Part shown: positions 1-30,382 of the stretch, piece after piece
Layout of the letters: each line of letters begins with the position of its first letter
Numbering within the stretch: the first letter of the stretch is position 1
Source: Candidatus Harrisonbacteria bacterium
GTDB taxonomy: Bacteria > Patescibacteriota > Minisyncoccia > UBA6257 > 1-14-0-10-40-38
Reading direction: 5' to 3'
Length of the DNA stretch: 64,000 nt
NCBI GenBank assembly: GCA_023245035.1
Contig: JAHFLD010000001.1
Coordinates: 196,002-260,001 of the forward strand
Position numbers and translations under genes: made by a program
The notes under the pieces: generated by a model
Seen by the model: only the letters and a program-made list of their open reading frames with translations
The model's database searches: none
What the model was told of the DNA's origin: nothing

Positions 1-940
1 CTATCTTGGCTCGCTTAAAACACGCCTCGAACTTCAAGACAAATATAAAGTCTATATTTTGATCGCCGACATCCAGGCGCTAACCGACAATTTTGATAAT
101 CCCAAAAAAGTTAGCGACAACGTCCTGGAAGTTTTGCTGGATTATTTAAGCATTGGACTGGATCCCCAAAAAACCACCTTCGTCCTGCAATCCGCCGTGC
201 CGGAAATCGCCGAGCTCACGGTTTTCTTTATGAATCTGGTTACCCTGGGCCAGCTGGAGCAGAATCCGACGGTCAAAACCGAAATTGAGCAAAAGCGTTT
301 CAAAGGGGGAATCCCGTTGGGCTTTCTGGCCTATCCGGTTAGCCAAGCCGCCGACATCGCAATCTTTAAAGCCAACCTGGTGCCGGTGGGCGAGGATCAA
401 CTGCCAATGATTGAACAAACCCGCGAAATCGTCCGGCGCTTTAATCGCTACTACGGAAATATTCTGGTGGAGCCGGAGGCGATGCTTTCAAAATTCCCGC
501 GTCTTCCCGGCACCGATGGCAAAGACAAGATGAGCAAGTCTCTCGGCAACGTCATCAACTTGTCCGACGACGCGAAAACATTGGAGAAAAAAGTCCGCGG
601 CATGTACACCGATCCGGCGCGCGTCCACGCCACGACCCCGGGCAATGTGGAGGGCAATCCCGTCTTCACTTATCTGGATGCCTTTGACCCCGACCCGAAA
701 ATCGTTGAAGAACTCAAAACCCGTTACCGCAAAGGCGCAGTAACCGACGCCGAAGTCAAAGAGCGCCTCATCAAAACCCTCAACGATTTTCTTGATCCCA
801 TCCGCTCCCGCCGCGCCGAATATATCGATAATAGAGAGGCTCTGATAGAAATTTTAAGAAGCGGCACCGAAAGGGCTCGAAAAATCACCGCCACTACAAT
901 TTCAGAAGTTAAAGCGGCTCTGAGTCTTAAAAACTTTTAA
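1..940 (+). CDS. trpS: tryptophanyl-tRNA synthetase, 5'-truncated at window edge
   Basis: Reading frame open to position 1 (track ORF starts at an internal TTG, 59). Class I aaRS KMSKS motif 'KMSKSLGN'; 'FIADLHALT'-like N-terminal region; C-terminal TrpRS-like helical region. Confidence 0.85.
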
Positions 941-1111
941 AACCGCGGAAAAATGACGGCTATTGACTATAAATATAAGATTGTTTATAATAGCCTCTAT
1001 ATAAAGCCTATATCTCGCTCATTAATTGAGATGAATATAGAAGAAATAAGGCCTCAAAAAAAAGAGCGCCTTTTATCTTGCTATTACGCGAGAAAATAAA
1101 CTTACTACAAC

Positions 1112-2185
1112 ATGGTTGTCGAAGCGGTCAAAAACATCAAAGAGATAAAAGAATTCAACGATCACCGACTCGTCCTTAGATTTGAAGACAAAAAATTGAA
1201 TTTGCGGGGTTTTGTGGCTATTCATAACGACAACCTTGGACCCGCGACCGGAGGCACGAGAATGTTTCCTTATCAAAACGAGAAAGAAGCTCTGGTAGAC
1301 GTACTGCGCCTTTCTCGGGCCATGACTTATAAATGCGCTCTTGCCGGTGTCCGCCATGGTGGCGGCAAAGCGGTAATTATCGGAAATCCTGGAAAAATAA
1401 AAAACAAAGAGCTCCTAAAAAATTACGCTAGAGTAATTAATGAATTGAATGGAAGATTTCACACCGGCGAGGATGTCGGGATATCCGAAGATGACGTTCA
1501 GGTAATGCTAACCGAATCCAAATTTTTTATAGGCCGAAAAGGAATCGCCGGGGATCCTTCGCCTTACGCGGCTTTAAGTACCTTCTATGCCATTAAAACC
1601 GGAATCGCCGAAGTCTTTGGAAGTGAGAATCTGGAAAATCGAAGTGTCGCCATCAAAGGAATCGGTAAAGTTGGCAGTGAATTAATGAGGCTTACCCTCA
1701 ATGAAGGCGCCAAGATTTGCATCGCGGATATCGAATCGGCAAGGGTAGACGCGACACAAAAAAAATTCCCAAAAATTAAAACGGTGGATACCAAAGACAT
1801 ACATCGCCAACTGGTTGATGTCTTATCTCCTTGCGCGCTTGGCAACGACATCTCCCAAGAAAACATTAAAGAAATTCACGCGCGCATTATTTGTGGCGGA
1901 GCCAACAACCAATTGACGAACAATGAAATCGGCGATGAACTTTTCCAGCGAAGAATACTCTATGTTCCGGATTATGTGGCAAACGCTGGTGGTTTAATCA
2001 ATGTAGTCGACGAGCTGGAAAAAGATGGCTACAACCGCGACCGCGTCTTAAAAAGAATAGAAAATATCAAAAAAACCCTTTCAACCATTTATCTCTTGGC
2101 CAAGCAACGCAATCAACCGCCATTCCGCATTGCCGATAAACTCGCGGAAGAAATTTTTAATGGGAATTCCCATCGCCAAAGCTAG
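1112..2185 (+). CDS. Glu/Leu/Phe/Val amino-acid dehydrogenase family (Leu/Phe dehydrogenase-like), NAD-binding
   Basis: 'GPATGGTRMFPY' and 'GGGKAVIIGNP' resemble the substrate-site and Lys-containing motifs of Leu/Phe dehydrogenases. A Rossmann 'GIGKVGSEL' lies in the C-terminal half. Confidence 0.65.
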   Translation: MVVEAVKNIKEIKEFNDHRLVLRFEDKKLNLRGFVAIHNDNLGPATGGTRMFPYQNEKEALVDVLRLSRAMTYKCALAGVRHGGGKAVIIGNPGKIKNKELLKNYARVINELNGRFHTGEDVGISEDDVQVMLTESKFFIGRKGIAGDPSPYAALSTFYAIKTGIAEVFGSENLENRSVAIKGIGKVGSELMRLTLNEGAKICIADIESARVDATQKKFPKIKTVDTKDIHRQLVDVLSPCALGNDISQENIKEIHARIICGGANNQLTNNEIGDELFQRRILYVPDYVANAGGLINVVDELEKDGYNRDRVLKRIENIKKTLSTIYLLAKQRNQPPFRIADKLAEEIFNGNSHRQS

Positions 2186-2202
2186 TCACCACTCCAAAAG
2201 GC

Positions 2203-3702
2203 ATGAATATCAAAATAAGAAGGGAAAAAAGAATTTTAAATTTGCTTCATAAAAAGAGTTGGAATTTCTGGGCGAAAGAAAGAGAAAAAAGAGCCCTAAA
2301 GATTTTCCACGAAGCGGCCATACGGGTGCCAGCCTATAAAAATTTCTTGAAAAAAAATAGAATCAACTCAGAACACATTCGGACTTTCAAGGATTTTCAA
2401 AAAGTTCCCACAACCAGTAAGCAAAATTATTTAAAACATTATCCGATTGAGTCGTTGCCCTGGGATGGAACCCTAAAAAAACCGCTCGTCTTCACCTCAA
2501 CCTCTGGTTCCACGGGAAAGCCGTTCTATTTTCCTCGCGGACATCGTTTGGATTGGGAATATTCCATTCTCGCCGAATTTTTTCTTAAAAATAGCTCATA
2601 TAAATCAGGTGGGCCGGTTTTGGTTATTATTGGGTTTGGTATGGGTGTTTGGATTGGCGGTCTGATTACCTACCAAGCTTTTGAGATAGCTGGAAATCGC
2701 GGTTATCCGATATCAATCATTACTCCTGGCATCAATAAAAAGGAAATATTCAATGCCCTCAAAAATCTCTCCCCTCATTATAAAGAAACGATTTTTATCG
2801 GATATCCTCCATTTTTGAAAGATATTTTAGATGAGGCGCCCGATGAGGGAATTAATCTTAAAAAAATAAACTTCCGCGTTCTTTCTGCGGCCGAGGCTTA
2901 TACTGAAAAATTTCGTGAGTACATAGTAAAAAAAGGAGGAATCAAAAATCTATATTTAGACACGCTCAATATCTACGGGACCGCCGACATCGGAGCGATG
3001 GCTTGGGAGACGCCAACCGCCATCTTAATTCGCCGCCTTGCCATGAAGGATCCGCATGTCTTTCAATCTATTTTTTCCAAGATTAACAAAACACCTACGC
3101 TCGCCCAGTACAATCCCTTATTCATCACCTTTGAAGAAAAAGATGGAGAAATTATATTAACTGGAAATAACACCATTCCTCTAATCCGGTACGCGGTTGG
3201 CGATCATGGCGGAATTACGACTTTTTCGGAAATAATCGAAAAACTAAAAAAGCACAAAATTGATTTTTACAAGGAAGCTAAAGCCGCGGGGATTGAAAAT
3301 CACATCACGCAATTGCCCTTCGTCTACGTCTACGAGCGTAATGATTTTTCTACAACTTTGTATGGTCTGCAAATATACTCGGAAACAATTCGCGAAGTTT
3401 TAATCGACGAACCGCTAGATAGATTCCTTACCGGAAAGTTCTCTATGGCGACAAAGTTCAACAATAAACAGGATCAATATCTGGAAATCAATCTGGAACT
3501 AAGAAAAAACCGTCTGGCCAATAAACGCTTAGAAAAACTGGTTCTATCCAAAATTATGTCCAATTTGGAACTCAAAAATTCGGAGTTCAAAGAACTGCAT
3601 CAATATCTTGGCGATCGGGCATTGCCTCGCCTCATATTCTGGCCTGCGGAACACGCCCTGCACTTCAAGCTTGGCGTTAAACAGAAATGGGTTAAAAAAT
3701 AA
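2203..3702 (+). CDS. PaaK/CapK/F390-synthetase-like adenylate-forming enzyme (ANL superfamily)
   Basis: AMP-binding P-loop 'TSTSGSTGKPFYFP' about 100 aa from the N-terminus, as in phenylacetate-CoA-ligase-like proteins. Separated by 5 bp from the next gene, so probably an operon. Confidence 0.6.
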   Translation: MNIKIRREKRILNLLHKKSWNFWAKEREKRALKIFHEAAIRVPAYKNFLKKNRINSEHIRTFKDFQKVPTTSKQNYLKHYPIESLPWDGTLKKPLVFTSTSGSTGKPFYFPRGHRLDWEYSILAEFFLKNSSYKSGGPVLVIIGFGMGVWIGGLITYQAFEIAGNRGYPISIITPGINKKEIFNALKNLSPHYKETIFIGYPPFLKDILDEAPDEGINLKKINFRVLSAAEAYTEKFREYIVKKGGIKNLYLDTLNIYGTADIGAMAWETPTAILIRRLAMKDPHVFQSIFSKINKTPTLAQYNPLFITFEEKDGEIILTGNNTIPLIRYAVGDHGGITTFSEIIEKLKKHKIDFYKEAKAAGIENHITQLPFVYVYERNDFSTTLYGLQIYSETIREVLIDEPLDRFLTGKFSMATKFNNKQDQYLEINLELRKNRLANKRLEKLVLSKIMSNLELKNSEFKELHQYLGDRALPRLIFWPAEHALHFKLGVKQKWVKK

Positions 3703-3707
3703 AATTT

Positions 3708-4850
3708 ATGGATAGTCAAAAACGAGATTGTGATTCATGGCAGCCAATCAAGATTTCTTCGGTTGAGAACGATTCGCTAATCGCCGCGCATCCGGAAATA
3801 TCAATCATCGATGAAAGTAAAAAAAATCTAGAAGAATTATTCTTATTGCGCAACCCTAAATATCGCTTTGATAAAAATTATCAAACGGAATTTGAAAAGT
3901 TCTTCAATCAGCGCAACGCCGAAAATGCGGGGAACTGGTTTTATTTTCCCTGGCTAAACAGCTCGGTTCTTTATTTACCGGAAGACCTGCACCTCGAGCT
4001 TCGTACCGGAAGAAATAAATATCTCATCTCCGAAGAAGAACAATCGAGGTTTTATAATTCCACGATTGCTTGCTTGGGAATGAGTGTCGGCAGCCACGTC
4101 GCCGTGGTGATGGCAATGACTGGTGGGCCAAAGCATTTAAAACTTGCCGACCCAGACACGCTCTCCGGCGATAATCTAAACCGAGTCCGGAGCGGTTTTC
4201 AGAATGTCGGCCTGGCAAAAGCGATAGTGGTCGCTAGGCAAATTTATGAAATAAACCCCTACGCGGTCATTGAACTATACCCGCAAGGGATTACCCAAGA
4301 CACCGCCGGAAAAATATTAGAAGGTGCCGATGTTGTTATCGAAGAAATGGACAATATGTATTGGAAACTAAAAGCCAGAGAATTGGCGCGGGAAAAGGGA
4401 ATCCCCGTGTTAATGGGAACCGATAATGGCGATGGCGCGATTGTCGATGTTGAGCGCTTTGATCTAAATAAAAAACTACCTATTTTAAACGGCTATGCCA
4501 AAGGCTTGAGCGCCGAAAAATTAAAAAGCCTTCCGCCAAAGGATATTCCAAAAGTTGCCGGAAAAATTGCTGGTGCGAATTTGGTCGTTCCGCGTATGCT
4601 GCACTCCGTCTCCGAGGTAGGGAAGTCGCTTTATTCTTGGCCCCAACTGGGAACTGCCGCCAATATGTGCGGTTCATTGCTAGCCATGCTTGCCCGTCGG
4701 ATTATCAACAAAGATAAGAACATCAAATCCGGCCGATATTCAGTTAATCCAGACGCGATTTTTGAATCCGGCTACCGCCGCCGATGGTTTTCCCGCAAAA
4801 TCGCCTTCATAAAATTCATCCGAAAAATGCTGAAGCAGGGCAAGCAATAA
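3708..4850 (+). CDS. ThiF/MoeB/E1-like adenylyltransferase-fold protein with ~100-aa N-terminal extension
   Basis: 'IACLGMSVGSHVAVVMAMTGG...LKLADPDTLSGDNLNRV' matches the E1/ThiF nucleotide-binding Gly-rich loop followed by D..(S/N)NLNRQ. The N-terminal ~100 aa has no recognised motif. Confidence 0.55.
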   Translation: MDSQKRDCDSWQPIKISSVENDSLIAAHPEISIIDESKKNLEELFLLRNPKYRFDKNYQTEFEKFFNQRNAENAGNWFYFPWLNSSVLYLPEDLHLELRTGRNKYLISEEEQSRFYNSTIACLGMSVGSHVAVVMAMTGGPKHLKLADPDTLSGDNLNRVRSGFQNVGLAKAIVVARQIYEINPYAVIELYPQGITQDTAGKILEGADVVIEEMDNMYWKLKARELAREKGIPVLMGTDNGDGAIVDVERFDLNKKLPILNGYAKGLSAEKLKSLPPKDIPKVAGKIAGANLVVPRMLHSVSEVGKSLYSWPQLGTAANMCGSLLAMLARRIINKDKNIKSGRYSVNPDAIFESGYRRRWFSRKIAFIKFIRKMLKQGKQ

Positions 4851-4916
4851 ATAGTATTAAGAAAATTAAAAACTAGTTTAGTGTTATCATAGAAGATATG
4901 ATCTCTTGCGAAGAGA

Positions 4917-5285
4917 TTGAAAAAAATAGTCGCTGCTTCCATCAACGCCCCATCAGGGAGCAACTCTCAACCCTGGAAATTCAGGGTTTTTAATAATCAA
5001 TTAGAAATTTTGGGATTTCCTGAAAAGGACCACCCGATTCTAAATTTTCGAAATCGTGGAACTTGGATAGCTCACGGAGCTTTAATTGAGAATATCAATA
5101 TCGCCGCAACGGCTTTCGGATATGAAGCCCAGATTCAGGTATTTCCAAATGGAGAGAATACCGGCATTACTGGACGAATTAACTTTAAGAAAACAGAAAA
5201 ACCAAAAGACGAACTTTTTGATTCAATACTCTTAAGAGCAACGAATCGAAAGCCCTATAAAGACAAGATATTAACTGTGAAATAA
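4917..5285 (+). pseudogene. truncated nitroreductase-fold N-terminal fragment (122 aa); duplicate of the 5' part of the 7509..8573 gene
   Basis: nt 4935..5281 are 100% identical to 7545..7891. A stop codon follows immediately where the full-length copy continues. Upstream homology to the full copy is out of frame ('MISCEEIEKNS' in another frame versus 'VISNQEIEEIVT'). Confidence 0.5.
4935..5281. repeat. 347-bp perfect direct repeat, copy 1
   Basis: Base-for-base identical to 7545..7891 on checking several 60-nt blocks. Identity ends exactly at the stop codon of the truncated copy. Confidence 0.85.
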
Positions 5286-5324
5286 AAAGAAGGCATAAAT
5301 TTGAATATGCCCTCCGGACCTGTT

Positions 5325-5537
5325 TTAGGACGAATCTCTAGTTCCATTAATTAAATCGAGGGACTTTTTATGTCCACGACTTGCCTTTAAAAGTTCTTCT
5401 TGTCTAGCTACTACTTGGATTTTTGCAATACTCATTTGTTTTACATCGCAAAGACAGAACATAGAAAGATCTTCTAATACCGCAGGAAGGATATAAATAC
5501 TCCTATCGCGCTTCTTTCCGCACATGGAACACATCAT
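5325..5537 (-). CDS. hypothetical small protein (70 aa) with N-terminal CxxC
   Basis: ORF 'MMCSMCGKKRDRS...' lies downstream of the M16 peptidase on the same strand. AAGGAA sits 8 nt before the ATG. A TTGACA with an AT-rich -10-like region lies in the 175-bp upstream gap. Confidence 0.3.
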   Translation of the reverse strand: MMCSMCGKKRDRSIYILPAVLEDLSMFCLCDVKQMSIAKIQVVARQEELLKASRGHKKSLDLINGTRDSS

Positions 5538-5712
5538 GATTAGTGATTCCTTATTTTAAAGAACAAAGCCTTCACGCCTAGACCACCAGACTCAACGGCC
5601 GAGTGTCGATCCATCTAAGGATATATATTTTTAATATAATGTCAAACACCTAGAGAATTTTGCTAATTATCCCTCTTTATTAAGAGGTAGTGTTCTCTGT
5701 CAAAATTCACTC

Positions 5713-6975
5713 TCAAAAAACATCCTTCGGGCCAAAAATCCCAATGAATCTCCTGTCTGGAGTGAGATATTTTCTGTTGGCATTTCTAATGTCATCCACT
5801 GTCAGGGCATTCATACTTTCAATTACTTCTTCAGGGGTTATGAGTCTATCGTAATCAATGAATTTATCTCCCAAAAAATTAAATTTCCCATTCGAAGTTT
5901 CAATGTTTCTTAAAAGAGTATTTTTTATCTGTATTTTTAAATCACCTAAAAGCTTCTCGTCTATCGCAGTAGGTATGTTCTCAAAAACTTCTTCTACTCC
6001 TCTTAAGACCTCGACTGGGTGAATAGTTTTCGTTTTAATCTCCAAATCTCCAGCATCAAGCTGATAAGGAAATCCTGCCCAAGCTCCATATATGAGTCCA
6101 AGCTTCACTCTTAATTTTTGGATCAATGCCGAAATAGATCCAGCGCCAAGATAGATCGCAATTAGCTCAAGGGATAAAATTTCTTTTTGACTTAGTTCAC
6201 TCAACCCAGCATTTGCGAACCCATATATTATTTGGGTTTGATCGCTCTTACGATACTCGTAATATTTTAAGTCTTTGACTATGGGTGAAAAAGGAACCTT
6301 ATCCATTATTATAGAATCTTGATTTTCCATCCATGTCGCAAAATACTTATGAGCCCAATCAACGATTTGAGAGTGACTATAACTACTAGCTACAACTAGC
6401 GCCGAACGATTTGGTACTAAAAACTTTTGACGATAAGCATCCAGGCTTTCTACGGTTGCCCGTAAAACATTCTTTGGATCATTCCATGTATGATAAGAAG
6501 CTGGATGTTGGAAAAAAACTTTATTTTTTAATTTTATACCGGAAAAAGCAAAAGCATCATTAGAATTTCCGGCATATTCTTCAAGTGTTGCTTGTTTCTC
6601 TTTTTCAAGCACTTCAGGGTCCATGAGGGGATTCAAAATTGTATCAGACATGAGATCTATCATGGCTTCGGTTTGATCTCTGCCAATAATAATTGGGAAC
6701 CACATGCGGTGATTGTCTGTATGTCCGTTTTTATATCCACCAAGGCGTTCAACCTGGCCGGCAAGTTCAATGCGACTCGGCCATCTCTTAGTTCCCTCTA
6801 ATAACATATGCTCTAGCAAATGAGAGAATCCCAAATTCTCTGATGATTCATGGCGGTATCCAGACTTAATCCATATACCCAAAGCTGCGACATCAGAATT
6901 GTCGCTTTCGGCAGAAATTATCGTCAAGCCATTTTCCATTCTTGATGATTTATATTTTGTGAGCATGCTCTTCAT
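5713..6975 (-). CDS. M16 (pitrilysin/insulinase) family zinc peptidase
   Basis: Inverted zincin motif 'HLLEHM' (HxxEH) about 50 aa from the proposed start. The start was moved to 'MKSMLTKY' because the 59-aa N-terminal extension in the track overlaps another frame and looks non-coding-like. AT-rich codon usage. Confidence 0.7.
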   Translation of the reverse strand: MKSMLTKYKSSRMENGLTIISAESDNSDVAALGIWIKSGYRHESSENLGFSHLLEHMLLEGTKRWPSRIELAGQVERLGGYKNGHTDNHRMWFPIIIGRDQTEAMIDLMSDTILNPLMDPEVLEKEKQATLEEYAGNSNDAFAFSGIKLKNKVFFQHPASYHTWNDPKNVLRATVESLDAYRQKFLVPNRSALVVASSYSHSQIVDWAHKYFATWMENQDSIIMDKVPFSPIVKDLKYYEYRKSDQTQIIYGFANAGLSELSQKEILSLELIAIYLGAGSISALIQKLRVKLGLIYGAWAGFPYQLDAGDLEIKTKTIHPVEVLRGVEEVFENIPTAIDEKLLGDLKIQIKNTLLRNIETSNGKFNFLGDKFIDYDRLITPEEVIESMNALTVDDIRNANRKYLTPDRRFIGIFGPKDVF

Positions 6976-7060
6976 TGTAAACTCATTATTTAATCTTGTA
7001 AATTTAAAAAAATCACTCGCCTTATTTTTTATAAGGCGAGTGAAAACCGAGCGAAGTTCT

Positions 7061-7282
7061 CTACTTCGTACGGTTCGGACACGTCGTTGACGTGCAGTCG
7101 GGATCATCGCTGGTGTTGCATCCGGCGTCCCCGGGACCGCTGTAACTGGCAAGCATGGTACTTACCCCTTTTCGCTCATCGCGAAAACTCGCATCCTTTG
7201 ATGGCTCCACATACAACACTTCCAAATCCTGAGTTAGGATTTGATGTGAAATGAGGTTATTAGGACAGACGCCTACTAACAT
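7061..7282 (-). CDS. candidate small Cys/Ser/Thr-rich peptide (possible RiPP precursor); start uncertain (alternatives 7375 or 7156)
   Basis: ORF ends 'GPGDAGCNTSDDPDCTSTTCPNRTK'. It sits 85 nt upstream of and co-directional with the M16 peptidase. Locally GC-rich. No clear SD. Confidence 0.25.
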   Translation of the reverse strand: MLVGVCPNNLISHQILTQDLEVLYVEPSKDASFRDERKGVSTMLASYSGPGDAGCNTSDDPDCTSTTCPNRTK

Positions 7283-7508
7283 CACCGAAGTTGTAAAAGA
7301 ACCACCCCCAAACAGACTCAAGTTGGAGAGTCCAACGCGCAGTCTATCTGTATGAGAGTCATTATACGTTCTCAATAAAATAAGTCAAGGCCCAAAAAGC
7401 AGCCATCTTTTATAAAGGCACCAAAAAGGCTATAATCAAAGACACAAATACCCATCCATGACCCCAAACTACTCCGCCTGGATCTCTGGAATCTGATATA
7501 CTTCTTAA

Positions 7509-8573
7509 GTGATCTCAAATCAAGAAATAGAGGAAATAGTTACCGCTTCCATCAACGCCCCATCAGGGAGCAACTCTCAACCCTGGAAATTCAGGGTTTT
7601 TAATAATCAATTAGAAATTTTGGGATTTCCTGAAAAGGACCACCCGATTCTAAATTTTCGAAATCGTGGAACTTGGATAGCTCACGGAGCTTTAATTGAG
7701 AATATCAATATCGCCGCAACGGCTTTCGGATATGAAGCCCAGATTCAGGTATTTCCAAATGGAGAGAATACCGGCATTACTGGACGAATTAACTTTAAGA
7801 AAACAGAAAAACCAAAAGACGAACTTTTTGATTCAATACTCTTAAGAGCAACGAATCGAAAGCCCTATAAAGACAAGATATTAACTGTGAAGCAAAAAAG
7901 AGAATTTCTTATATCCGCGCAAGAAATTAATCCAAATTGCGATATTCGTATCACTGAAGATAAATTAGCAAAAAATATTTTAGGCAGTGCAGTCAGTGTT
8001 AACGAGGTTGTAATGCTAGAAAACGAGAAACTGCACCAACTTTTTTTTGATGAAATTGTATGGACCAAAGAAGAGGAATCAAAAAAGCAGAAAGGGTTAT
8101 ATTTAAAAACAATGGAACTAGGTTTTCCGCAGCGCACTGCTCTCCGACTTTTTAAACACTGGTCAATAATGAAAATAGCAAATAAATTTGGTGTGGCAAA
8201 AAAAATCGCAAATGATAATGCAAAAACATATAGCGCCTCTTCAATTATGGGGATAATAATAGTTGATGATACAGATAAAGATTTTATAGATGCAGGCAGA
8301 ATCATTGAGCGACTTTGGCTTAAGGCAACAAATGAAAAACTAGAATTCCATCTAATTACAGGAGTTATGTTTTTTTATCAAAGAGTCATGTCTGATCCCA
8401 AAGGATTTTCCCCGGTTCATATTGAACTAATCAAAAAAACATATAATCAAATTAAAGAAGTTTTCAAAGTGGAGAAAGGGGTCATCGCCGGACTTTTTAG
8501 AATCGGAGAAGACGGAAAGCCAACTGCAAGATCAATAAAATCCCCGCCAGAATTTATAAAAAAGTATGTCTAG
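7509..8573 (+). CDS. nitroreductase-fold (FMN-dependent oxidoreductase, SagB/McbC-like dehydrogenase fold) protein, 354 aa
   Basis: Nitroreductase signature 'ASINAPSGSNSQPWKFRVF' (APS..N.QPW.F). GTG start. The C-terminal ~200 aa extend beyond a minimal nitroreductase. Confidence 0.65.
   Translation: MISNQEIEEIVTASINAPSGSNSQPWKFRVFNNQLEILGFPEKDHPILNFRNRGTWIAHGALIENINIAATAFGYEAQIQVFPNGENTGITGRINFKKTEKPKDELFDSILLRATNRKPYKDKILTVKQKREFLISAQEINPNCDIRITEDKLAKNILGSAVSVNEVVMLENEKLHQLFFDEIVWTKEEESKKQKGLYLKTMELGFPQRTALRLFKHWSIMKIANKFGVAKKIANDNAKTYSASSIMGIIIVDDTDKDFIDAGRIIERLWLKATNEKLEFHLITGVMFFYQRVMSDPKGFSPVHIELIKKTYNQIKEVFKVEKGVIAGLFRIGEDGKPTARSIKSPPEFIKKYV
7545..7891. repeat. 347-bp perfect direct repeat, copy 2
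   Basis: Identical to 4935..5281. Confidence 0.85.
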
Positions 8574-10176
8574 TTTAGGAAATTTAGATCTGTTATCTGT
8601 AGGCGTCGCCATAGCGGCGAGTGCGATTCTTGGTTTCATTGTTTTTCTCTCAAATAAAAAAAGCGTAACGAATAGAACATTGTTTTTTTTCACGATAGAA
8701 TCAATTTTCTGGAATATTTTTAACTATCTAATATTCCAATTCAGTACTCCAGAAAAAGCTTTAATAATTCTTCGGTTTCACGTTTTCTTTGTAGTTTGGT
8801 ATTGCTTCTTACTTTTTCAGCTCTTTTACGTATTCCCAGAAGAGAAAAAAGCCTTCCCCAAGTGGTATAATTTCTTCCTTCTTCCGGTGGTGACGCTAGT
8901 TTCCATCCTAACCCTAACACCATTCACATTTGCCAAGGTTTTAGAATTTTCCAATGGACACATTCAAAAAGTTCTGAATGGATGGGGTATCTTCATATTT
9001 GGGGCAACGGTAGTTTCTTTGATTGTTGCTGGCCTATTAATTCTTTTAAGAAAGACAATGAGCGCAAATGCCACAGAAAAAAATCAATTCAGACTTATAT
9101 TAATTGGAACATCAATCACATTCTCGTTACACATAGCTTTTAATTTGATCTTTCCGGCATTTCTAGATAATCCAAATTTGATTATCTATGGAGCGATTTT
9201 CACTTTTCCATTCATCATCTTTACAGCTTATGCCATCCTAAAACTCCGCTTGTTGGGAGTAAAGGTGATTGCGACTGAAATATTAACCTTTTTCATTACA
9301 GTTGTTTCGCTGGCGCAGCTTATTTTAGCGACAACGTTAACAGAAAGAATTTTCCGTTTTGGAATCTTTTTACTAGTTCTTGGTTTTGGAATTTTACTTA
9401 TCCGCAGCGTCCGCAAGGAAGTCGAACAAAGGGAGAGATTAGAGATACTAACCAAAGATTTAGAAGCGGCCAATGCCAAGTTAAAAGAACTCGATGCCCA
9501 GCGCGCCGAGTGGTTGGGGTTCGCCTCGCATCAGGTTAAGTCGCCAATGGCTGTGGTCAAAGGCTACGCCCAGCTCATAATGGACGGCACCTACAATCCC
9601 GTCTCCGAAAAAGCCAAAGAAACCGCCGGCAAGATCAAAGAAAAAGTTGACGACTTGATAACCCTCGTCAGCAACTATATAAACGTAAGCAAAATTGATG
9701 AAGGCAAACTGGAAACGCCCAAGCTAAATCCGATAGACATCGTCAAACTTCTGCGCGATCTGGTGGAGGGCGAAAAAATCGTTGCCAAAAAACGCAACCT
9801 CGTCCTAACTTTCGAAAGCCTTGGCCCTTCGCTCATCATCAAAGCCGACGAAGAAAAAATTCGGCAAGTGGCGCAAAATCTCATCGACAACGCCCTCAAA
9901 TATACCGAAAAAGGTTTTGTTAACGTTAAACTGGAAGACAAAGGCCCATCGGTGCTGATTTCCATAACCGACTCCGGCCGTGGCATGTCGCCAACTCTTA
10001 TTGGCCGCCTGTTCAACCGCTACATTCGCGACGAAAAAACGAGCAAAGAAGTGCAAGGCACCGGTCTTGGTCTTTTTATCGCTAAACAAATTGTGCTCGC
10101 CCACAATGGAGAAATTTGGGCTGAGTCCGACGGCGAAGGCAAGGGTAGTAGGTTTTATTTCCGCCTACCAAAATAG
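8566..10176 (+). CDS. membrane sensor histidine kinase (multi-TM N-terminal domain)
   Basis: About 7 predicted TM helices. H-box 'ASHQVKSPMAVVKGY'. HATPase_c G-boxes 'DSGRGM' and 'GTGLGLFIAKQIV'. Overlaps the upstream gene by 8 nt. No DNA-binding response regulator adjacent. Confidence 0.8.
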   Translation: MSSLGNLDLLSVGVAIAASAILGFIVFLSNKKSVTNRTLFFFTIESIFWNIFNYLIFQFSTPEKALIILRFHVFFVVWYCFLLFQLFYVFPEEKKAFPKWYNFFLLPVVTLVSILTLTPFTFAKVLEFSNGHIQKVLNGWGIFIFGATVVSLIVAGLLILLRKTMSANATEKNQFRLILIGTSITFSLHIAFNLIFPAFLDNPNLIIYGAIFTFPFIIFTAYAILKLRLLGVKVIATEILTFFITVVSLAQLILATTLTERIFRFGIFLLVLGFGILLIRSVRKEVEQRERLEILTKDLEAANAKLKELDAQRAEWLGFASHQVKSPMAVVKGYAQLIMDGTYNPVSEKAKETAGKIKEKVDDLITLVSNYINVSKIDEGKLETPKLNPIDIVKLLRDLVEGEKIVAKKRNLVLTFESLGPSLIIKADEEKIRQVAQNLIDNALKYTEKGFVNVKLEDKGPSVLISITDSGRGMSPTLIGRLFNRYIRDEKTSKEVQGTGLGLFIAKQIVLAHNGEIWAESDGEGKGSRFYFRLPK

Positions 10177-11423: not shown

Positions 11424-11987
11424 ATGAAAAAAACACTTATTTTAGTGGCGGTGGTTGTGGTGGCTTTTCTCGGTTATGCGGTAATTCAAAAATCAAGAAA
11501 TACCGCCCAATCAACCGAGATTATTAGCGATAAAACTGAATGGAAAACTCACATCCACAGCGCTGGAGATTATTCATTTGAGTATCCAACAGGATGGTTC
11601 ATTAACGACTCGCCTAAAAATGGGGATGCATACGTTCGAGTTAGTAATTACGACCCCGAGATTTTTGTGAATGACATACACGCGAAAGGAAGTTATTTTA
11701 AAATAGAAATATACACTTTGGAAAATAAAAAACAGCTTAGTATTAACGACTGGATTGCGGAAGCTAGATCACGAACAGGCGATAGCTCAAAAATAACAAA
11801 ACAGGAAGAAATTATAATAAACGGAAAAACAGCAACTGCGATTACCCAAGAAAGCCCAGAAGGTGTGTATAAATCGCTGTATCTAAGCAATGAAGACAAA
11901 ATAGTAACGATTTTATTGTTTGGTGCGATTGAAGAATTTCACAAAACAAGCGATGCGATCATACATAGCTTTGCATTTAGTAATTAA
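11424..11987 (+). CDS. hypothetical secreted/membrane-anchored protein
   Basis: Signal/anchor 'MKKTLILVAVVVVAFLGYAV'. Confidence 0.45.
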   Translation: MKKTLILVAVVVVAFLGYAVIQKSRNTAQSTEIISDKTEWKTHIHSAGDYSFEYPTGWFINDSPKNGDAYVRVSNYDPEIFVNDIHAKGSYFKIEIYTLENKKQLSINDWIAEARSRTGDSSKITKQEEIIINGKTATAITQESPEGVYKSLYLSNEDKIVTILLFGAIEEFHKTSDAIIHSFAFSN

Positions 11988-14900
11988 GCAAAACAGAAAA
12001 GCGAGATTTTTTTTAGCGAATCTCTTTGTTTTGCTTGCATGGTTGCTGGTTTTACCCGCAAGTGTTTTTGCCAGTCAATTGACTTCTCCACTGACCAATT
12101 ATCAGGTTGTAAGCTGGTTTGATCATGATTATCCAGGAAGCTTACAAAACAATAATTTCACACGATATGATGGCCAACTATGGACTGATGGATCGGCGAA
12201 TCTATCAAACGCCACAGCGACTAGTTGTACTAACGGAATTAATTGTTATGACAGACATAATGGGATAGATCTGTTTGCCGTTACTGGAACTCCCGTATTC
12301 GCAGCCGAGAATGGTGTAGTTCAGCTCAACACCACCATGGGTTGTAATGGTAAATATGTTACAGTTCTAGACTCAGAAGGAAATACCGCTTTTTACACGC
12401 ATCTTGATTATGCAACCATAGGATCTGCCGGGACACCAGTTTTAAGATTTCAGCAAATAGGAGTAAGCGGAAGCACTGGTTGCACTACTGGTCCTCATCT
12501 TCATTTTGGGATCCATAACTCCGGTGACCTTGTCATTGACCCCTACGGCTGGTCTCCATCGCCAAACGCGCCAGTTCAGATAGACCCCTGGGTTCACAAC
12601 CAAGGCTATCTTTGGACTACTAATCCGCCATCGCTGAACGTGAACCCCGCCACCTACGTCTCCGGAGTTATCTCGCAAAACACCATATGGACTGCCCAAG
12701 GCAGTCCATATGTCATTCAAAATAACCTCACTGTTTCCGCCAGCACCACACTCACCATTAATCCCGGAGTAGTGGTGAAGTTTGACTCCTCCGCCAGCCT
12801 CTATATATACGGAACTCTCCTCGCCCAAGGCGGAACTTCCAGCACCACCCGAGTCTACTTCACCTCCATCAAAGATGACTCAATCGGCGGCGACACCAAC
12901 AACGACGGCGCCACCACTACTCCAGCCGTCGGAGATTACATGGGTATCTATTTCTATCCGAGTTCAATAGGAAATCTAACCCGCAACACCCTCCGCTATG
13001 GTGGAAACGATTTCTACCCATATCACTTTGGTGTGATCAAAAACCTTGGCGGCTCGGTAACACTTGCAAATAGTGAAATTAATTCTAACTATGGCAATGG
13101 CCTCAAACAAATTTCTGGAAACATATCACTAACCAGCAACTCAATTCACAACAACGGCGGCAGTGGATTTGAGCAAACTGGCGGCATGTCTACCACGACC
13201 AATTCAACATTTTCCGGAAACCAGACTTACGGGATCTTTCTCCAAAACGGAACCTCTACCATTACAAGTAATATTTTCAGCGATCACGGCAATGCGGATA
13301 TAAATATCAACGCACAATCGTATTTTAATCAATCCGGAAACGTTAGCTCCGGAATTGGTAAACATGGCATAGAAATATATGGAAGTTTAACGCACGACCA
13401 AGTTTGGAATCCTGGCATTCCGTTTATTCCGCAAAATATGGCCGTTAATTCAGGAAAAAGCTTAACAATTCTCCCTGGATCGGTCATAAAATTCGATGGA
13501 ATCAACGGTAATGGCGCCAACAATGGGGGGTTTATTACAGTTTATGGGCACCTCATCGCTCGTGAAAATCAACTCCAACCAAACTCACCGCAAATCTACT
13601 TCACCTCCTATGTTGACGATACCATCGGCGGCGACACTAATGGCAACGGTACGACAACGGTGCCATATTCAGGAATCTATCAAGGAATTTACTTCTATCC
13701 CGGTTCCACTGGTCTTTTTCAAAAAACTGCTTTGCGTTACGGAGGAGCCAGTTACTATCCATACTATGCTGGTGTGATTAAAAATTTCGGTGGCGAGATA
13801 AATATACAAAATAGCAACCTCTCATTAAACTCTCCAAGCGGTATCTATCAAGCATCCGGCACCACAACTATCAGCGGAACTTTAATAACAGACAACGTGA
13901 ACGACGGATTTTCTCAAAATGCGGGCGTTTCCACGGTCACTAACTCAATTTTCAGCAACAATCAATTTTTTGGTCTGAATCTTACTGGTGGCACTAGTAC
14001 TATAAATCAAACCATGTTTTCCAATCACTTGGGCGGGGACATTCAAATGTGGAATAATGGGGTCTTAATTCAATCCAATTTGCAAACCTCCGGAACCGGC
14101 AAACATGGTATTCGGGTTGCTGGCGGAATGACTAACAACCAAACCTGGACACCTGGACTACCTTATGTAATGAGTAGTTTTAATATTTTTGCCAATGCTA
14201 ATTTATCAGTCGCGCCAGCGACTGTTATAAAATTTGAGCCAGGTGGATCACTCTATGTTTTTGGCACTCTACAAATTTCAACTACTAGTCCCAATGCGGC
14301 CCGGGTCTATTTAACTTCGGTTCGCGACGATACTCTCGGCGGTGATTCCGATGGAGATGGCCGAGTCATTCTGCCAGCTCCCGGTGATTACACGGGAATT
14401 TATGCCCAACCGGGATCTTTAGTGAATCTTTTTAAAGTTGAAATGCGTTATGGGGGAAGTGATTATTACCCATATCGCTTTGGTGCAATTAAAAACTTCG
14501 GTGGACTGGTAGCTGCGCGATATACTAATTTTCTCAATAACTATTATCAGGCTTTGTACCAAATGAGCGGCACCTCAACCATCGTCTCGTCTTTAATCGC
14601 AAGCAGTACCCAAAACGGTATTAACCAATTAGGCGGCGGTCTTACCGTGGCCAACACCATTTTTTCCGGAAATTCCGGTTATGGCTTAAATCTTTCAGAC
14701 GGATTTGCGACCGTAACCAGTTCCTCATTTAATAACAATCAAAACGGCGATGCCTTCATTAATGGATTAGCTAACTTTACCCACGCTAATAATACTTTTC
14801 TTGGCGGCAAACACGGTTGGTATATGGGTGGCTATACAGATCATGACTGGACGTGGTCGCCGGAACAAGCCTATATTATTAATCCGGGTTTTCTTGTAGC

Positions 14901-15483
14901 TAGTGGCACTAGCTTAACAGTGCAACCAAATACCATCATCAAAGGCATTGCCTATGGAGAAATCGCAGTCGCGGGCACGGTCAACATGAATGGCATCGCT
15001 TCTACGAGTCGCATCTTCATCACCTCGCTAAAAGACGATTCCATCGGTGGCGATACAAACGCGGATAGCAACGCAACCACTCCGCAAAGCGCCGACTATA
15101 ATGGACTAACAATTCTGCCTGGCGGGAGCGCGAACCTAAATCAGGTTTTAGTAAAATATGGCGGTGGAGGTTATTACCCCAATTATTGGGGTGCGATTAA
15201 AAATCTTGGCGGCAACCTCTTTTTGGCCAACGACATTCTCCAGCAAAACCAAGTTGGCATATATACAACAGACGGCACAACTTCGATAAGTCAAAGCTCC
15301 ATTTACAGCAACACTGTCTATGGCATTTTGAATCAAAACTCAAATGCAACGGTAACCGCACAAAGCAACTGGTGGGGCGATGCCTCTGGCCCGCATAACT
15401 GGCTTACCAATACCGGTGGCTCCGGCAACGAAGTTCTCGGCAACGTCCTTTTTACCCCCTGGCTTGTAAGCGACCCGAATTAG
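11953..15483 (+). CDS. large secreted M23 (LytM-type) metallopeptidase fused to right-handed beta-helix (PbH1-like) repeats
   Basis: Signal peptide 'FFLANLFVLLAWLLVLPASVFAS'. M23 motifs 'HNGIDL' and 'GPHLHFGIH' (HxxxD...HxH). It is followed by about 900 aa of repeats such as 'GNGL', 'SGNQTYGIFL' and 'YGGSDYYPY' recurring four times, as in parallel beta-helix/adhesin modules. The start was moved from 11920 to an internal ATG to avoid overlapping the prior gene. Confidence 0.65.
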   Translation: MRSYIALHLVIKQNRKARFFLANLFVLLAWLLVLPASVFASQLTSPLTNYQVVSWFDHDYPGSLQNNNFTRYDGQLWTDGSANLSNATATSCTNGINCYDRHNGIDLFAVTGTPVFAAENGVVQLNTTMGCNGKYVTVLDSEGNTAFYTHLDYATIGSAGTPVLRFQQIGVSGSTGCTTGPHLHFGIHNSGDLVIDPYGWSPSPNAPVQIDPWVHNQGYLWTTNPPSLNVNPATYVSGVISQNTIWTAQGSPYVIQNNLTVSASTTLTINPGVVVKFDSSASLYIYGTLLAQGGTSSTTRVYFTSIKDDSIGGDTNNDGATTTPAVGDYMGIYFYPSSIGNLTRNTLRYGGNDFYPYHFGVIKNLGGSVTLANSEINSNYGNGLKQISGNISLTSNSIHNNGGSGFEQTGGMSTTTNSTFSGNQTYGIFLQNGTSTITSNIFSDHGNADININAQSYFNQSGNVSSGIGKHGIEIYGSLTHDQVWNPGIPFIPQNMAVNSGKSLTILPGSVIKFDGINGNGANNGGFITVYGHLIARENQLQPNSPQIYFTSYVDDTIGGDTNGNGTTTVPYSGIYQGIYFYPGSTGLFQKTALRYGGASYYPYYAGVIKNFGGEINIQNSNLSLNSPSGIYQASGTTTISGTLITDNVNDGFSQNAGVSTVTNSIFSNNQFFGLNLTGGTSTINQTMFSNHLGGDIQMWNNGVLIQSNLQTSGTGKHGIRVAGGMTNNQTWTPGLPYVMSSFNIFANANLSVAPATVIKFEPGGSLYVFGTLQISTTSPNAARVYLTSVRDDTLGGDSDGDGRVILPAPGDYTGIYAQPGSLVNLFKVEMRYGGSDYYPYRFGAIKNFGGLVAARYTNFLNNYYQALYQMSGTSTIVSSLIASSTQNGINQLGGGLTVANTIFSGNSGYGLNLSDGFATVTSSSFNNNQNGDAFINGLANFTHANNTFLGGKHGWYMGGYTDHDWTWSPEQAYIINPGFLVASGTSLTVQPNTIIKGIAYGEIAVAGTVNMNGIASTSRIFITSLKDDSIGGDTNADSNATTPQSADYNGLTILPGGSANLNQVLVKYGGGGYYPNYWGAIKNLGGNLFLANDILQQNQVGIYTTDGTTSISQSSIYSNTVYGILNQNSNATVTAQSNWWGDASGPHNWLTNTGGSGNEVLGNVLFTPWLVSDPN

Positions 15484-16963: not shown

Positions 16964-17036
16964 GGGTGTATAGCTCAATTGGTAGAGCGTCGGGTTGTGG
17001 TCCCGAAGGTTACGGGTTCAAAGCCCGTTACACCCC
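16964..17036 (+). tRNA. tRNA-His (anticodon GTG)
   Basis: Cloverleaf folded by hand. Acceptor GGGTGTA/TACACCC. D-arm GCTC-AATTGGT-AGAGC. Anticodon stem TCGGG/CCCGA with loop TTGTGGT. T-arm ACGGG-TTCAAAG-CCCGT. Discriminator C. No encoded CCA or G-1. Confidence 0.8.
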
Positions 17037-26028: not shown

Positions 26029-26207
26029 GGTTTCTACCTGCCAGATACGGCCGGGCTGATTTCTTGGCCTTTGAAAAGTTAATCACCGATAATGAGTCAA
26101 AGATTTTATAGTTGTCCCAATGTTTAGAAGTTACTGATTTACGAATCGTGGCGAACTTGCGAATTTATTCGCATATTCGTACGCATTCGTATATTTGTAA
26201 TTTCATT

Positions 26208-27862
<1,655 letters not shown>

Positions 27863-28100
27863 AACTTACACTTTCTCACCTTGCTTCGGCAGGAGAAAAA
27901 GTGGAGTGTCGATCTATAAAAAAAGAAGGTGTTGACCGATGAACCTTAAGTCTCGGTCCGTCAGTCGCTTCGGCGACCGCGTAAGGTTTTAGATATTGAG
28001 ATGGCGCAAGCCGTCGCGATTTATAAGACTATTGGGGCAACTATAAAGTGTTTGGACTCAAATTAACGGTAAGCAACAATCAAAAATCGGTACAAGAAAA

Positions 28101-28866: not shown

Positions 28867-29508
28867 ATGCAGACACGAAAAGGATTTACCCTGATTGAAC
28901 TTCTGATTGTTATTGGCATTTTAGCGGTGCTCGCCACCACGGTGGTCTTAGTCTTAAACCCGGCGCAAATCTTGGCCGAAACTCGCGACACCCAGAGAAT
29001 TTCTGATTTGGGATCGGTAAACAGCGCTATTGGTTTGTATTTGGCGACGGTTTCGAATCCAACGTTTGGAAGTGGTACGAGTTGCGGCACTTTGGCGCTT
29101 TGGCGATCGAGTGGCGCTGGCGCTACAATCGCAGCGGTTGCGGCGACCCTTAGCCCATTTGCCGGCACCTATACAGGGGCTTCTCTTCCGGCTTCTAATT
29201 TCCGGAACGTTGACGGCACTGGTTGGGTTTCAGCGAACCTCGGAGGTATTAGCGGTGGCTCTCCATTGTCTAATCTTCCTACCGATCCTTCCGCCGCCAA
29301 TGCGGCATCGGCAGCTGCGCTTTCCGCGGCTGGACACTTCTATGCCTTCCAATGCGGTGCTGCCTCGGCGGCCCTAACCTACGAACTTGATGCCAACATG
29401 GAAAGCACTAAGTTCGGCAATACGGGAACTGCTGATGTTGAAAGTACCGATGGCGGAAATGTTGCCTCGGTTTACGAAGTCGGCAACGATCCAGGTCTTG
29501 ATTTATAA
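28867..29508 (+). CDS. type IV pilin (prepilin with class III signal)
   Basis: 'MQTRKGFTLIELLIVIGILAVLA' is a G/FTLIE prepilin cleavage-methylation motif. The N-terminal ~65 aa and the last ~12 aa are shared with the next gene. Confidence 0.75.
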   Translation: MQTRKGFTLIELLIVIGILAVLATTVVLVLNPAQILAETRDTQRISDLGSVNSAIGLYLATVSNPTFGSGTSCGTLALWRSSGAGATIAAVAATLSPFAGTYTGASLPASNFRNVDGTGWVSANLGGISGGSPLSNLPTDPSAANAASAAALSAAGHFYAFQCGAASAALTYELDANMESTKFGNTGTADVESTDGGNVASVYEVGNDPGLDL

Positions 29509-29674
29509 AGTTTTACGGTAATCGTAAAAAAACAAGAAACAACTCGTCTGTCCGGATTCTTTGTGAGGAAGAATAAGGATAAGGGGTTGTTTTTTGTTTT
29601 TACGCCAAGCCCGATATGCTATAATTAAAATAATCGCAAAAGTCATTTCAATAAATCAATAAATTTAAAAACTC

Positions 29675-30382
29675 ATGAAAAATATAAAAACAAAAGGATT
29701 TACCCTGATTGAACTTCTGATTGTTATCGGTATCTTGGCCGTTTTGGCCACAACAGTGGTGTTGGTCTTGAATCCGGCACAGATTTTAGCCGAAACCCGC
29801 GATACCCAGAGAATTTCTGACTTGGGATCGGTGAACAGCGCTATTGGTCTGTATCTGGCTACGGTTTCGAATCCAAATTTAGGTAGTATTCTAGGTGGTG
29901 TCAATGGAAGTTGTGGCGGAGGAAATTTTTACTCCTGGCGATCCAGTGGCGCCGGTAGTCCTCTGGCGGCGGTTCCAACCGCCAACAGCCCATTTGTAAC
30001 CCCAAGTGGATTCACTGCCACCAGTGGTTCGGTTTCCATGCCAGCCTCAGGGTTTAGAAATGTTGACGGCACTGGCTGGATTTCCACGGATTTAAATAAT
30101 ATCTCCGGCGGCTCTCCTTTAGCCAATCTGCCCTCTGATCCTTCAGCGGCTACCGCCTCCGCCGTAGCTCCGCTTTCTGGCGACGGCTCTCTTGGTCATT
30201 TCTATGCGTTTCAATGTGGTGGAGGCGCGGCAACCAGCACCCAATTCGAACTTGATGCCAATATGGAAAGCGTAAAATTTAGCGGAGGTACGACCCCGGG
30301 CTCAGCCGATGTAGAAGGGAATGACGGTGGCAATCAAGCTACGGTTTACGAAGTGGGTAATGCCCCGGGACTCGCGCTGTAA
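29675..30382 (+). CDS. type IV pilin paralog
   Basis: 'MKNIKTKGFTLIELLIVIGILAVLA'. About 85% nt identity to the upstream pilin over the first ~200 nt, with a divergent middle. It has its own TATAAT at ~29612. Confidence 0.75.
   Translation: MKNIKTKGFTLIELLIVIGILAVLATTVVLVLNPAQILAETRDTQRISDLGSVNSAIGLYLATVSNPNLGSILGGVNGSCGGGNFYSWRSSGAGSPLAAVPTANSPFVTPSGFTATSGSVSMPASGFRNVDGTGWISTDLNNISGGSPLANLPSDPSAATASAVAPLSGDGSLGHFYAFQCGGGAATSTQFELDANMESVKFSGGTTPGSADVEGNDGGNQATVYEVGNAPGLAL

Follow-up and report, generated by a model that had tools for sequence, protein, structure and literature searches.

A 64,000-nucleotide stretch of a Candidatus Harrisonbacteria genome (NCBI assembly GCA_023245035.1, contig JAHFLD010000001.1, positions 196,002 to 260,001 of the forward strand; hereafter, the window) contains a perfect 347-bp direct repeat whose two copies bracket a 2.26-kb cassette and belong to the 5' region of a gene for a flavin oxidase of the tandem-nitroreductase fold. 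We favour, with moderate confidence, the interpretation that the repeat is the scar of a lineage-specific, recombination-mediated insertion into a single-copy oxidase gene, in which one event would have both delivered the cassette and duplicated the repeat. Such an insertion is best read as the work of a mechanism of a known kind and not as a new kind of mobile element. The locus would then be a clean, datable case of gene-content change in uncultivated, genome-reduced bacteria of the candidate phyla radiation (CPR), accomplished without dedicated mobile-element machinery. It would also illustrate how an insertion anchored in a conserved coding block leaves behind a functional gene that is a hybrid, a pseudogene stub, and long direct repeats, which destabilise the locus.

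An exact repeat with unlike flanks

Direct string comparison and a repeat search showed that positions 4935-5281 and 7545-7891 are 100% identical over 347 bp, at an offset of 2,610 bp, bearing out the base-for-base identity claimed in an earlier reading of the letters without database searches (the sequence-only reading). The exact match could not be extended by even one base to the left or to the right; at this length chance is of no concern, and the repeat search found no other repeat of comparable length in the window. Copy 1 lies inside a truncated oxidase fragment, and copy 2 lies inside the full-length gene (Table 1). As the sequence-only reading had it, the fragment of 122 amino acids stops where the identity ends: its TAA codon arises at the junction, 2 nt past the last identical base.

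The two copies differ in what lies on either side of them. To their right (beyond 5281 and beyond 7891) the flanks are unrelated, apart from a shared AAAAA run that lies 2 nt past the joint. To their left the flanks are homologous yet diverged, with a +1 frameshift in copy 1. In the following we call the repeat R, the segment immediately upstream of copy 1 A, the segment immediately upstream of copy 2 A', and the remainder of the oxidase gene the rest. Segment A encodes MISCEEIEK(I)VAA, which matches codon for codon the start of copy 2 (VISNQEIEEIVTA, from GTG 7509) at ~67% nucleotide identity. A run of seven A residues (A7) at 4920-4926 shifts the ATG at 4898 by +1, out of frame with the repeat; when the frame is corrected, the resulting peptide MISCEEIEKIVAAS fits the family N-terminus, MISxEEIxKILxAS. 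The description of this upstream region as homologous, diverged and frameshifted therefore held up. Segment A is identical in two independent contigs (L001 and L007), and the A7 run is present in every independent assembly, the cassette-less contig L007 included. An in-frame TTG at 4917 is a possible alternative start and would yield a protein ~6 residues shorter.

Both A and A' encode bona fide family N-termini, and they differ at about one-third of their nucleotides (~67% identity, with five synonymous and five non-synonymous codon differences), while the 347 nt that follow are identical. Identity leaps from ~67% to 100% at 7545, so that the full-length gene has a hybrid 5' end; from the sequence, a switch as abrupt as this at the A'/R boundary would typify a crossover point. 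Copy 2 begins where the family's most nucleotide-conserved block, which encodes APSGSNSQPW, has its upstream edge. In the conservation profile, mean identity to relatives was 0.71-0.74 at 7554-7598 versus 0.4-0.5 elsewhere in the gene, and the longest exact match to any relative was 17 nt, at 7560.

The cassette is absent from related loci

To place the repeat in context, we used an alignment-based scan of GTDB representative genomes, which yielded 32 full-length homologous loci, and located homologues of the window's proteins in each; before it, a scan of genome contigs seeded with a single protein had given no match. In 26 of the 32 related CPR loci, the gene for a ThiF-like adenylating protein is followed directly by the oxidase gene, with a gap of ~0-110 bp and usually with a kinase gene next. 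Most of the loci keep the full order seen in the window, namely ELFV dehydrogenase, PaaK-like ligase, ThiF, oxidase and seven-transmembrane (7TM) histidine kinase. Each relative has one oxidase copy per locus. A homologue of the M16 peptidase, of the small open reading frame orf70, or of orf104 and the GC-rich segment that it overlies was found in none of the 32 loci. When the cassette was compared by tblastx and blastn with the 32 loci and with the remainder of the window, nothing significant came back, so the stretch upstream of A' is not a ThiF remnant.

The conserved ThiF-oxidase synteny and the absence of the cassette from relatives together indicate that there was a single ancestral gene, into which the cassette was inserted in this lineage specifically. 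The gene start at copy 1, which lies 48 nt past the ThiF stop codon, is on sequence grounds the original 5' end of the oxidase gene. Insertion or cassette capture had been among the options of the sequence-only reading, which had also asked for a comparison with related genomes; that comparison returned ThiF followed by an intact nitroreductase gene, with no cassette.

At two related loci, other genes occupy the same ThiF|oxidase boundary: a GmrSD restriction endonuclease in L026 (4084-5979), and an LCAT-like lipase with several membrane proteins in L010 (545-5900). No duplication like that in the window accompanies either insertion. The presence of unrelated inserts in other CPR genomes suggests that the ThiF|oxidase boundary is a recurrent insertion site.

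A one-event model and its known counterparts

In the model that we favour, the donor would have been a contiguous 2.26-kb piece of foreign chromosome carrying a terminator, orf70, the M16 gene, an RNA, divergent promoters and the start of the donor's own oxidase gene. Its minus strand would have read promoter, ~310-nt RNA or leader, terminator, M16, orf70 and terminator, and its plus strand would have contributed a divergent promoter and the first 12 codons, A'. The right end would have formed by short homeologous pairing and crossover in the APSGSNSQPW-coding block, where copy 2 begins; illegitimate joining, without homology, would have attached the left end behind 5281 in another copy of the locus, either a sister chromatid or a repair template. 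If both junctions came from one event, the native 4935-5281 would have been duplicated and left identical. The boundaries of the cassette, read from its sequence, fit the capture of a contiguous donor segment, with the terminator at 5288-5315 on the left and the divergent promoter plus A' on the right.

The consequences for the gene would have been twofold. Copy 1 (A plus R) would remain behind ThiF as a truncated, frameshifted pseudogene, and the functional gene would have become the hybrid A'-R-rest, uncoupled from ThiF and provided with a cassette-borne promoter and a new 5' end. Direct repeats of 347 bp make a locus unstable, and RecA-type exchange between them could generate cassette-less, tandem or circular derivatives. 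Such exchange may explain contigs from other samples in which the segments around R are paired differently. For annotation, the two 'nitroreductase' calls in this region would have to be treated as one gene plus a scar.

We compared this model with known routes of DNA acquisition. The arrangement resembles homology-facilitated illegitimate recombination (HFIR), a process of naturally transformable bacteria in which one end of an insert lies inside homology and the other is joined without it, and in which no recombinase or transposase takes part. The homologous junction has its counterpart in A' (7509-7544), which is homologous to A (4898-4934) and switches to R at the edge of the conserved block; the non-homologous junction has its counterpart in the unrelated sequences to the right of 5281 and 7891. 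A donor origin is suggested by the absence of the cassette from the 32 relatives and by the ~33% divergence of A', yet the composition of the cassette matches that of the resident neighbours and the donor was not found. The duplication of recipient DNA has a precedent in pneumococcal transformation, where interchromatid integration of transforming DNA creates duplications and merodiploidy (Johnston et al. 2013, PMC3784515); by analogy, the duplication here could have arisen if each of the two ends engaged a different sister copy. The window differs from the cases of both kinds in that its anchor would be a homeologous block of very short length, where no exact match to a known relative exceeds 17 nt. 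It also differs from the interchromatid cases in the size of the duplication (347 bp here versus about 100-900 kb) and in being known from sequence alone.

Campbell-type integration by a single crossover would likewise place an insert between direct repeats, with one truncated and one full-length gene copy, and would be reversible through recombination between the repeats; a contig of the circle-junction type (L088) exists. However, a circle that started with the diverged A' would need an R identical to that of the host, which presupposes an earlier integrated state, and no replication or maintenance function is visible in the cassette. We rejected Campbell integration of a diverged circle, which fails to explain 100% identity up to the truncation point together with a diverged A'.

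Insertion sequences (IS) and transposons also leave a direct target duplication around the insert and a disrupted gene in two pieces, but the duplication here is 347 bp rather than 2-14 bp, and the insert has a homologous gene start at one of its ends. No transposase or recombinase domain was found in the cassette's open reading frames with Pfam, NCBIfam, PHROGs or PADLOC, and no transposase, integrase or recombinase Pfam domain occurs within ~12 kb on either side. No terminal inverted repeats pair 5282 with 7544; all inverted repeats detected were internal palindromes or scattered weak pairs. Nor is there a tRNA, a tmRNA or a short att core at the insertion: the only tRNA lies at 16964-17036, and the flanking repeat is protein-coding. 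These searches agree with the sequence-only reading, which had argued against a classical IS insertion from the lack of a transposase, an integrase and a short target-site duplication.

The same reading had also offered gene conversion between nitroreductase paralogues. Under this alternative, conversion or unequal recombination would have acted between two resident oxidase genes, of which one followed ThiF and the other the M16 unit. In its favour, A and A' are evidently homologous as gene starts, and the codon usage of the cassette is like that of resident genes. A second paralogue was, however, found in no assembly of the organism and in no protein collection, where the cluster of self matches at 99-100% is followed by a next match at 57%, and relatives are single-copy at each locus. 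Identity moreover continues right up to the base that precedes the truncation. Conversion requires flanking homology on both sides of its tract, which is absent there, so a tract could not have ended at the truncation point; duplication within the insertion event would explain why the identity ends where it does. We consider paralogue conversion highly improbable.

Assembly evidence and linkage across the repeat

Contigs of the same organism from other assemblies were recovered by exact-protein look-up. A MEGAHIT contig built at k=141 (L001/L002) corresponds to window positions 1-5075 and ends exactly 141 nt into copy 1. Another from the same sample (L003) is 2,545 bp long and consists of 141 + 2,263 + 141 nt (5141-7685). 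A Logan contig built at k=31 (L004) is 2,323 bp long and consists of 30 + 2,263 + 30 nt (5252-7574), and L005 corresponds to 5152-7422; all three of these cassette contigs (L003, L004 and L005) match the window with 0-1 mismatches. Downstream contigs start inside copy 2, 141 or 30 nt short of its end: L006 at 7862, and a 58-kb contig from another sample at 7751. All four repeat junctions thus recur base for base in independent assemblies, from at least 4 other samples. This is the graph signature of a genuine two-copy repeat, with one R node, two entrances (A and A') and two exits (the cassette and the rest of the gene).

These contigs bear directly on whether the arrangement is a chimeric or duplicated misassembly that joined two strains or species sharing 347 bp, an option also raised in the sequence-only reading. 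Metagenome-assembled CPR genomes often mix strains, and variants at the level of single-nucleotide polymorphisms (SNPs) are present here. Yet the joints 5281|5282 and 7544|7545 were each recovered at 100% in the separate assemblies of several samples, by two assemblers, and no shared k-mer exists at the R|cassette joint that could have caused a spurious join. Because several samples have both joints in their reads, we exclude a one-off chimeric join, and we find misassembly of this kind barely credible.

The linkage across R is a separate matter, and several observations weigh against the favoured insertion model. No independent contig spans R in the window's pairing, A-R-cassette or A'-R-rest: the independent short-read assemblies all break at the repeat or cross it in an alternative pairing. 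L007 crosses R as A-R-rest, the cassette-less path, with two SNPs downstream. L088 (ERZ27280116 k141_1992195) runs through 7374-7891 and then 5282-5936, with one SNP; its A'-R-cassette start is a circle or tandem junction, absent from the linear order of the window. That order comes from the source assembly alone, a single NCBI contig of 261,739 bp, for which the assembler must have drawn on pairing, on long reads or on loop traversal. The cassette-less L007 shares the frameshift in A, which fits a deletion derivative but would be strange in an ancestral cassette-less form. A donor lineage was looked for and not found, the M16 peptidase having homologues at <=25% identity, orf70 none, and A' being absent from the JGI metagenomes. 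Since the codon usage of the cassette is like that of its recipient neighbours, the case for a foreign origin consists only of the divergence of A' and the absence of the cassette from relatives. The one-step mechanism itself is something that we infer from these remains.

Because k=141 is shorter than the 347-bp repeat, L007 and L088 are uninformative about linkage across R. Their pairings may come from deletion, tandem or circular forms that really exist, or from nothing more than the ambiguity of a k-mer graph. They are the exact products expected from exchange between the repeats, either a deletion plus a circle or, by unequal sister exchange, a deletion plus a tandem duplication. An interpretation of L007 as an empty-site allele was withdrawn, given that a k=141 contig cannot fix linkage over 347 bp. 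We favour the order of the window because it puts the intact start A' on the full-length gene and the frameshifted A on the truncated stub. Any short-read assembly of this organism will either break at the repeat or pair its flanks wrongly.

It is conceivable, though unlikely, that every cell carries the insertion as in the window and that the contigs with alternative pairings are artefacts of de Bruijn graph traversal, with no polymorphism at all. Pairing across R is arbitrary at a k-mer length below that of the repeat, and L005, L007 and L088 end in apparent coverage gaps, with L005 starting 10 k-mers short of the branch point and ending 122 nt before A'. A uniformly fixed insertion sits poorly with the contigs themselves, in which both 'wrong' pairings were seen and neither 'right' one, and with the expectation that 347-bp direct repeats recombine. 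The contigs also carry SNPs relative to the window (two in L007 and one each in L005 and L088), indicating that strain variants coexist in these samples.

We think it quite unlikely that the cassette and one R form a separate 2,610-bp circle, either plasmid-like or an abundant excision product, with a chromosome of the form ThiF-A-R-rest into which the loop was mis-threaded. A graph with one R node, two in-edges and two out-edges is satisfied equally well by this arrangement, the only R-spanning contigs, L007 and L088, show exactly its pairings, and L088 suggests that cassette paths outweighed chromosomal ones in that sample. But such a circle would be 2.6 kb of DNA without a replication gene or similarity to plasmids or phages. 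It would also give the intact start to the truncated fragment, leaving the sole full-length gene with the frameshifted one, and its 347 bp of sequence identical to the host, beside 36 nt of diverged homologue, would still need a prior integrated state. L007, L005 and L088 are moreover short (1.2-2.8 kb), which we took as a sign of low coverage, and missing k-mers could yield either pairing.

A bolder reading would make the 2.6-kb unit a recombinase-free mobile CPR cassette, which uses the conserved 5' end of a widely shared operon gene as its portable homology anchor, enters that gene in new hosts through host recombination only, exists in integrated, tandem and circular forms, and brings an undescribed ~310-nt RNA that controls an orphan M16 operon. 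The integrated, tandem and excised circular forms would match the three pairings seen across samples. We judge this very unlikely.

Contents of the cassette

The features of the cassette and its surroundings are listed in Table 1.

Table 1. Features at the interrupted oxidase gene (positions in the 64,000-nt window; an empty cell means that no strand applies).
Feature	Positions	Strand	Remarks
ThiF-like adenylating/cyclase gene	3708-4850	+	380 aa; Pfam ThiF; upstream partner of the oxidase
A, native 5' end of the oxidase gene (read from sequence)	4898-4934	+	ATG 4898
Truncated oxidase fragment	4917-5285	+	122 codons, TTG 4917 to TAA 5283-5285
Repeat copy 1 (R)	4935-5281	+	347 bp, inside the truncated 122-codon oxidase fragment
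Inserted cassette	5282-7544		2,263 bp, with the 36-nt A' at its right end
Intrinsic terminator of the M16-orf70 unit	5288-5315	-	10-bp stem, 8-nt loop, then TTTTATTT (terminator scan)
orf70, candidate small CxxC-containing open reading frame	5325-5537	-	70 aa; orphan
M16 (insulinase-type) metallopeptidase	5713-6975	-	420 aa from ATG 6975; gene callers extend to TTG 7152
Strong intrinsic terminator	7013-7043	-	13-bp stem, 5-nt loop, T7 tract
Candidate structured RNA, ~310 nt	7046-7355	-	GC 50%; overlaps the '104-aa Cys-rich' open reading frame
'Cys-rich' orf104	7061-7375	-	104 aa, unsupported as a gene
Sigma-70-type promoter-like site	7361-7388	-	TTGACT-16-TATAAT, 11 of 12, consensus match only
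Promoter-like site upstream of the full-length oxidase gene	7409-7436	+	TTTATA-16-TATAAT, 10 of 12, consensus match only
A', alternative intact 5' end of the oxidase gene	7509-7544	+	36 nt, GTG 7509, VISNQEIEEIVT; foreign-type gene start
Tandem-nitroreductase-fold flavin oxidase, full-length	7509-8573	+	354 aa; NF005901 and Acg family
Repeat copy 2 (R)	7545-7891	+	347 bp, codons 13-128 of the full-length oxidase gene

The M16 peptidase matches both domains of its family (PF00675 Peptidase_M16, E=7.6e-25; PF05193 M16_C, E=1.6e-18). It has the HxxEH zinc motif as HLLEH at residues 52-56 (6808-6822) and the downstream glutamate in ERLGG; its closest non-self homologue is just 25% identical. For orf70, no homologue other than itself was found among 5.8 billion proteins and no match in Pfam, PHROG or PADLOC; AlphaFold2 modelled it from the single sequence with a predicted local distance difference test score (pLDDT) of 51. 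The T-tract of the terminator at 5288-5315 abuts the repeat/cassette junction; the cassette is a complete transcription module with its own terminator right at the junction.

GC content at third codon positions was 0.32 in the M16 gene, 0.48 in ThiF, 0.30 in the nitroreductase gene and 0.25 in the next gene downstream. The AT-rich codon usage that the sequence-only reading had described as unlike the flanks thus contrasts with the left flank only and is matched on the right. The cassette had no match in plasmids (72,556), phages (50,697), IMG/VR or the JGI metagenomes; the last were covered by two exact scans, one with A' and one with the 3' end of R, neither of which found anything. Domain searches found no rep, par or mob genes in the cassette unit.

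Upstream of the M16 gene, the GC-rich segment at 7046-7355 has a folding z-score of -3.7 on the minus strand (-5.3 with a second shuffle set) and of -1.2 on the plus strand, against a window background with a mean of -0.58 and a standard deviation of 1.39. When the terminator is included, the z-score is -6.9. The T-tract of that terminator (7013-7043) ends ~30 nt upstream of the M16 start codon. No Rfam family was found for the segment, as searches at the gathering threshold and at E up to 10 gave terminator-like noise only, and no homologues were found from which covariation could be read.

The sequence-only reading had placed a small Cys-rich gene here, and this part of it did not survive. 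The GC content of orf104 is flat over the three codon positions (0.48/0.49/0.51), with no codon-position periodicity, and its TTG start overlaps the -10 box of the only good promoter and is upstream of that box. No match was found in Pfam, PHROG or PADLOC. A full HMMER scan of 1.84 billion representatives gave a single weak match, which was repeat-inflated and was rejected as a homologue; AlphaFold2 gave a pLDDT of 37 and no predicted fold. The 104-aa frame is probably not a gene and overlies a structured segment that extends from promoter to terminator.

A structured RNA or leader is a more likely identity for 7046-7355 than a protein gene. As a lead, we regard the segment as a candidate stand-alone small RNA or attenuator-type 5' leader of the M16-orf70 operon. 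The promoter at 7361-7388 would drive the structured segment and, through read-through, the M16 operon.

The interrupted pair belongs to a conserved operon

Of the 722 positions in the NCBIfam model NF005901 ('Rv1355c family'), the ThiF protein matches 31-340 (E=1.7e-81) and the oxidase 373-714 (E=2.8e-48); taken singly, each half scores under the 476-bit full-length cutoff of the model. ThiF corresponds to the N-terminal half and the oxidase to the C-terminal half of Rv1355c/TrzS-type proteins, and the pair is a split homologue of this mycobacterial oxazolone synthetase. Homologues of the oxidase number 419, mostly from CPR bacteria of the Paceibacteria/Parcubacteria type, with identities of up to 57%.

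TrzS converts N-acyl-tryptophan into N-acyl tryptazolone, through ATP-dependent cyclisation of the N-acyl amino acid and its O2-dependent desaturation, and TyzB/TyzC is an unfused version of it (PMC12856293). The oxazolone synthetases TrzS (Rv1355c), OxzB and TyzB plus TyzC (PMC12856293; de Rond et al., bioRxiv 10.1101/2020.06.11.147165) are relatives of the interrupted pair and not of the repeat. The ThiF and oxidase of the window match the two halves of the family model and, as with TyzB/TyzC, are normally adjacent. Unlike in TrzS, the two domains are in separate genes, here and in all 32 related loci, so the arrangement resembles TyzB/TyzC more than TrzS.

The neighbours set the cluster apart from the Trz and Tyz systems. 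The five genes, conserved as a cluster in Paceibacteria-type genomes (window 1112-10176; loci L008-L039), are those for the ELFV dehydrogenase, PaaK-like ligase, ThiF, oxidase and 7TM histidine kinase, and the oxidase gene overlaps the start of the kinase gene (8566-10176). The acyl-activating neighbour is the PaaK-like adenylate-forming ligase, which has weak TIGR02155 and NF041878 matches, rather than a TrzA/TyzA N-acyltransferase; domain searches found no amino-acid N-acyltransferase (TrzA/TyzA/OxzA) among the neighbouring genes. The operon also has the ELFV dehydrogenase, whose best NCBIfam match is the tryptophan dehydrogenase ScyB, below cutoff, and the histidine kinase. ThiF and the oxidase are thus partnered with a ligase in place of an N-acyltransferase, and always stand beside a sensor kinase. 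In the searchable literature, we found nothing that links an oxazolone-synthetase-like operon to a sensor kinase or to Patescibacteria. This conserved operon and the candidate RNA without a known family are the more promising leads from the window. A tryptophanyl-tRNA synthetase (TrpRS) gene adjoins the five-gene cluster in the window.

Other features of the window

The 16S rRNA gene at 26205-27866 is 1,662 nt long against a 1,533-nt model, implying an insertion of ~130 nt. 16S rRNA genes of CPR bacteria are frequently described with insertions. For 23S rRNA, the window had no match that reached threshold. Downstream of the 16S gene lie two pairs of diverged direct repeats, with copies ~0.8 kb apart: 28878-29073 and 29692-29887 (196 nt, 85%), and 29178-29231 and 30031-30084 (54 nt, 70%). 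The repeats at 28878-30084 are probably repeated domains of one gene.

In the sliding-window control for RNA folding, the segment 17051-17360, just downstream of tRNA-His (16964-17036), had unusually low z-scores on both strands (-4.6 and -3.4). Positions 11920-15483 encode a 1,187-aa protein that combines an M23 peptidase domain with three internally repeated beta-helix modules, and the corresponding DNA repeats in its gene, at 12854, 13595 and 15014, are ~70% identical.

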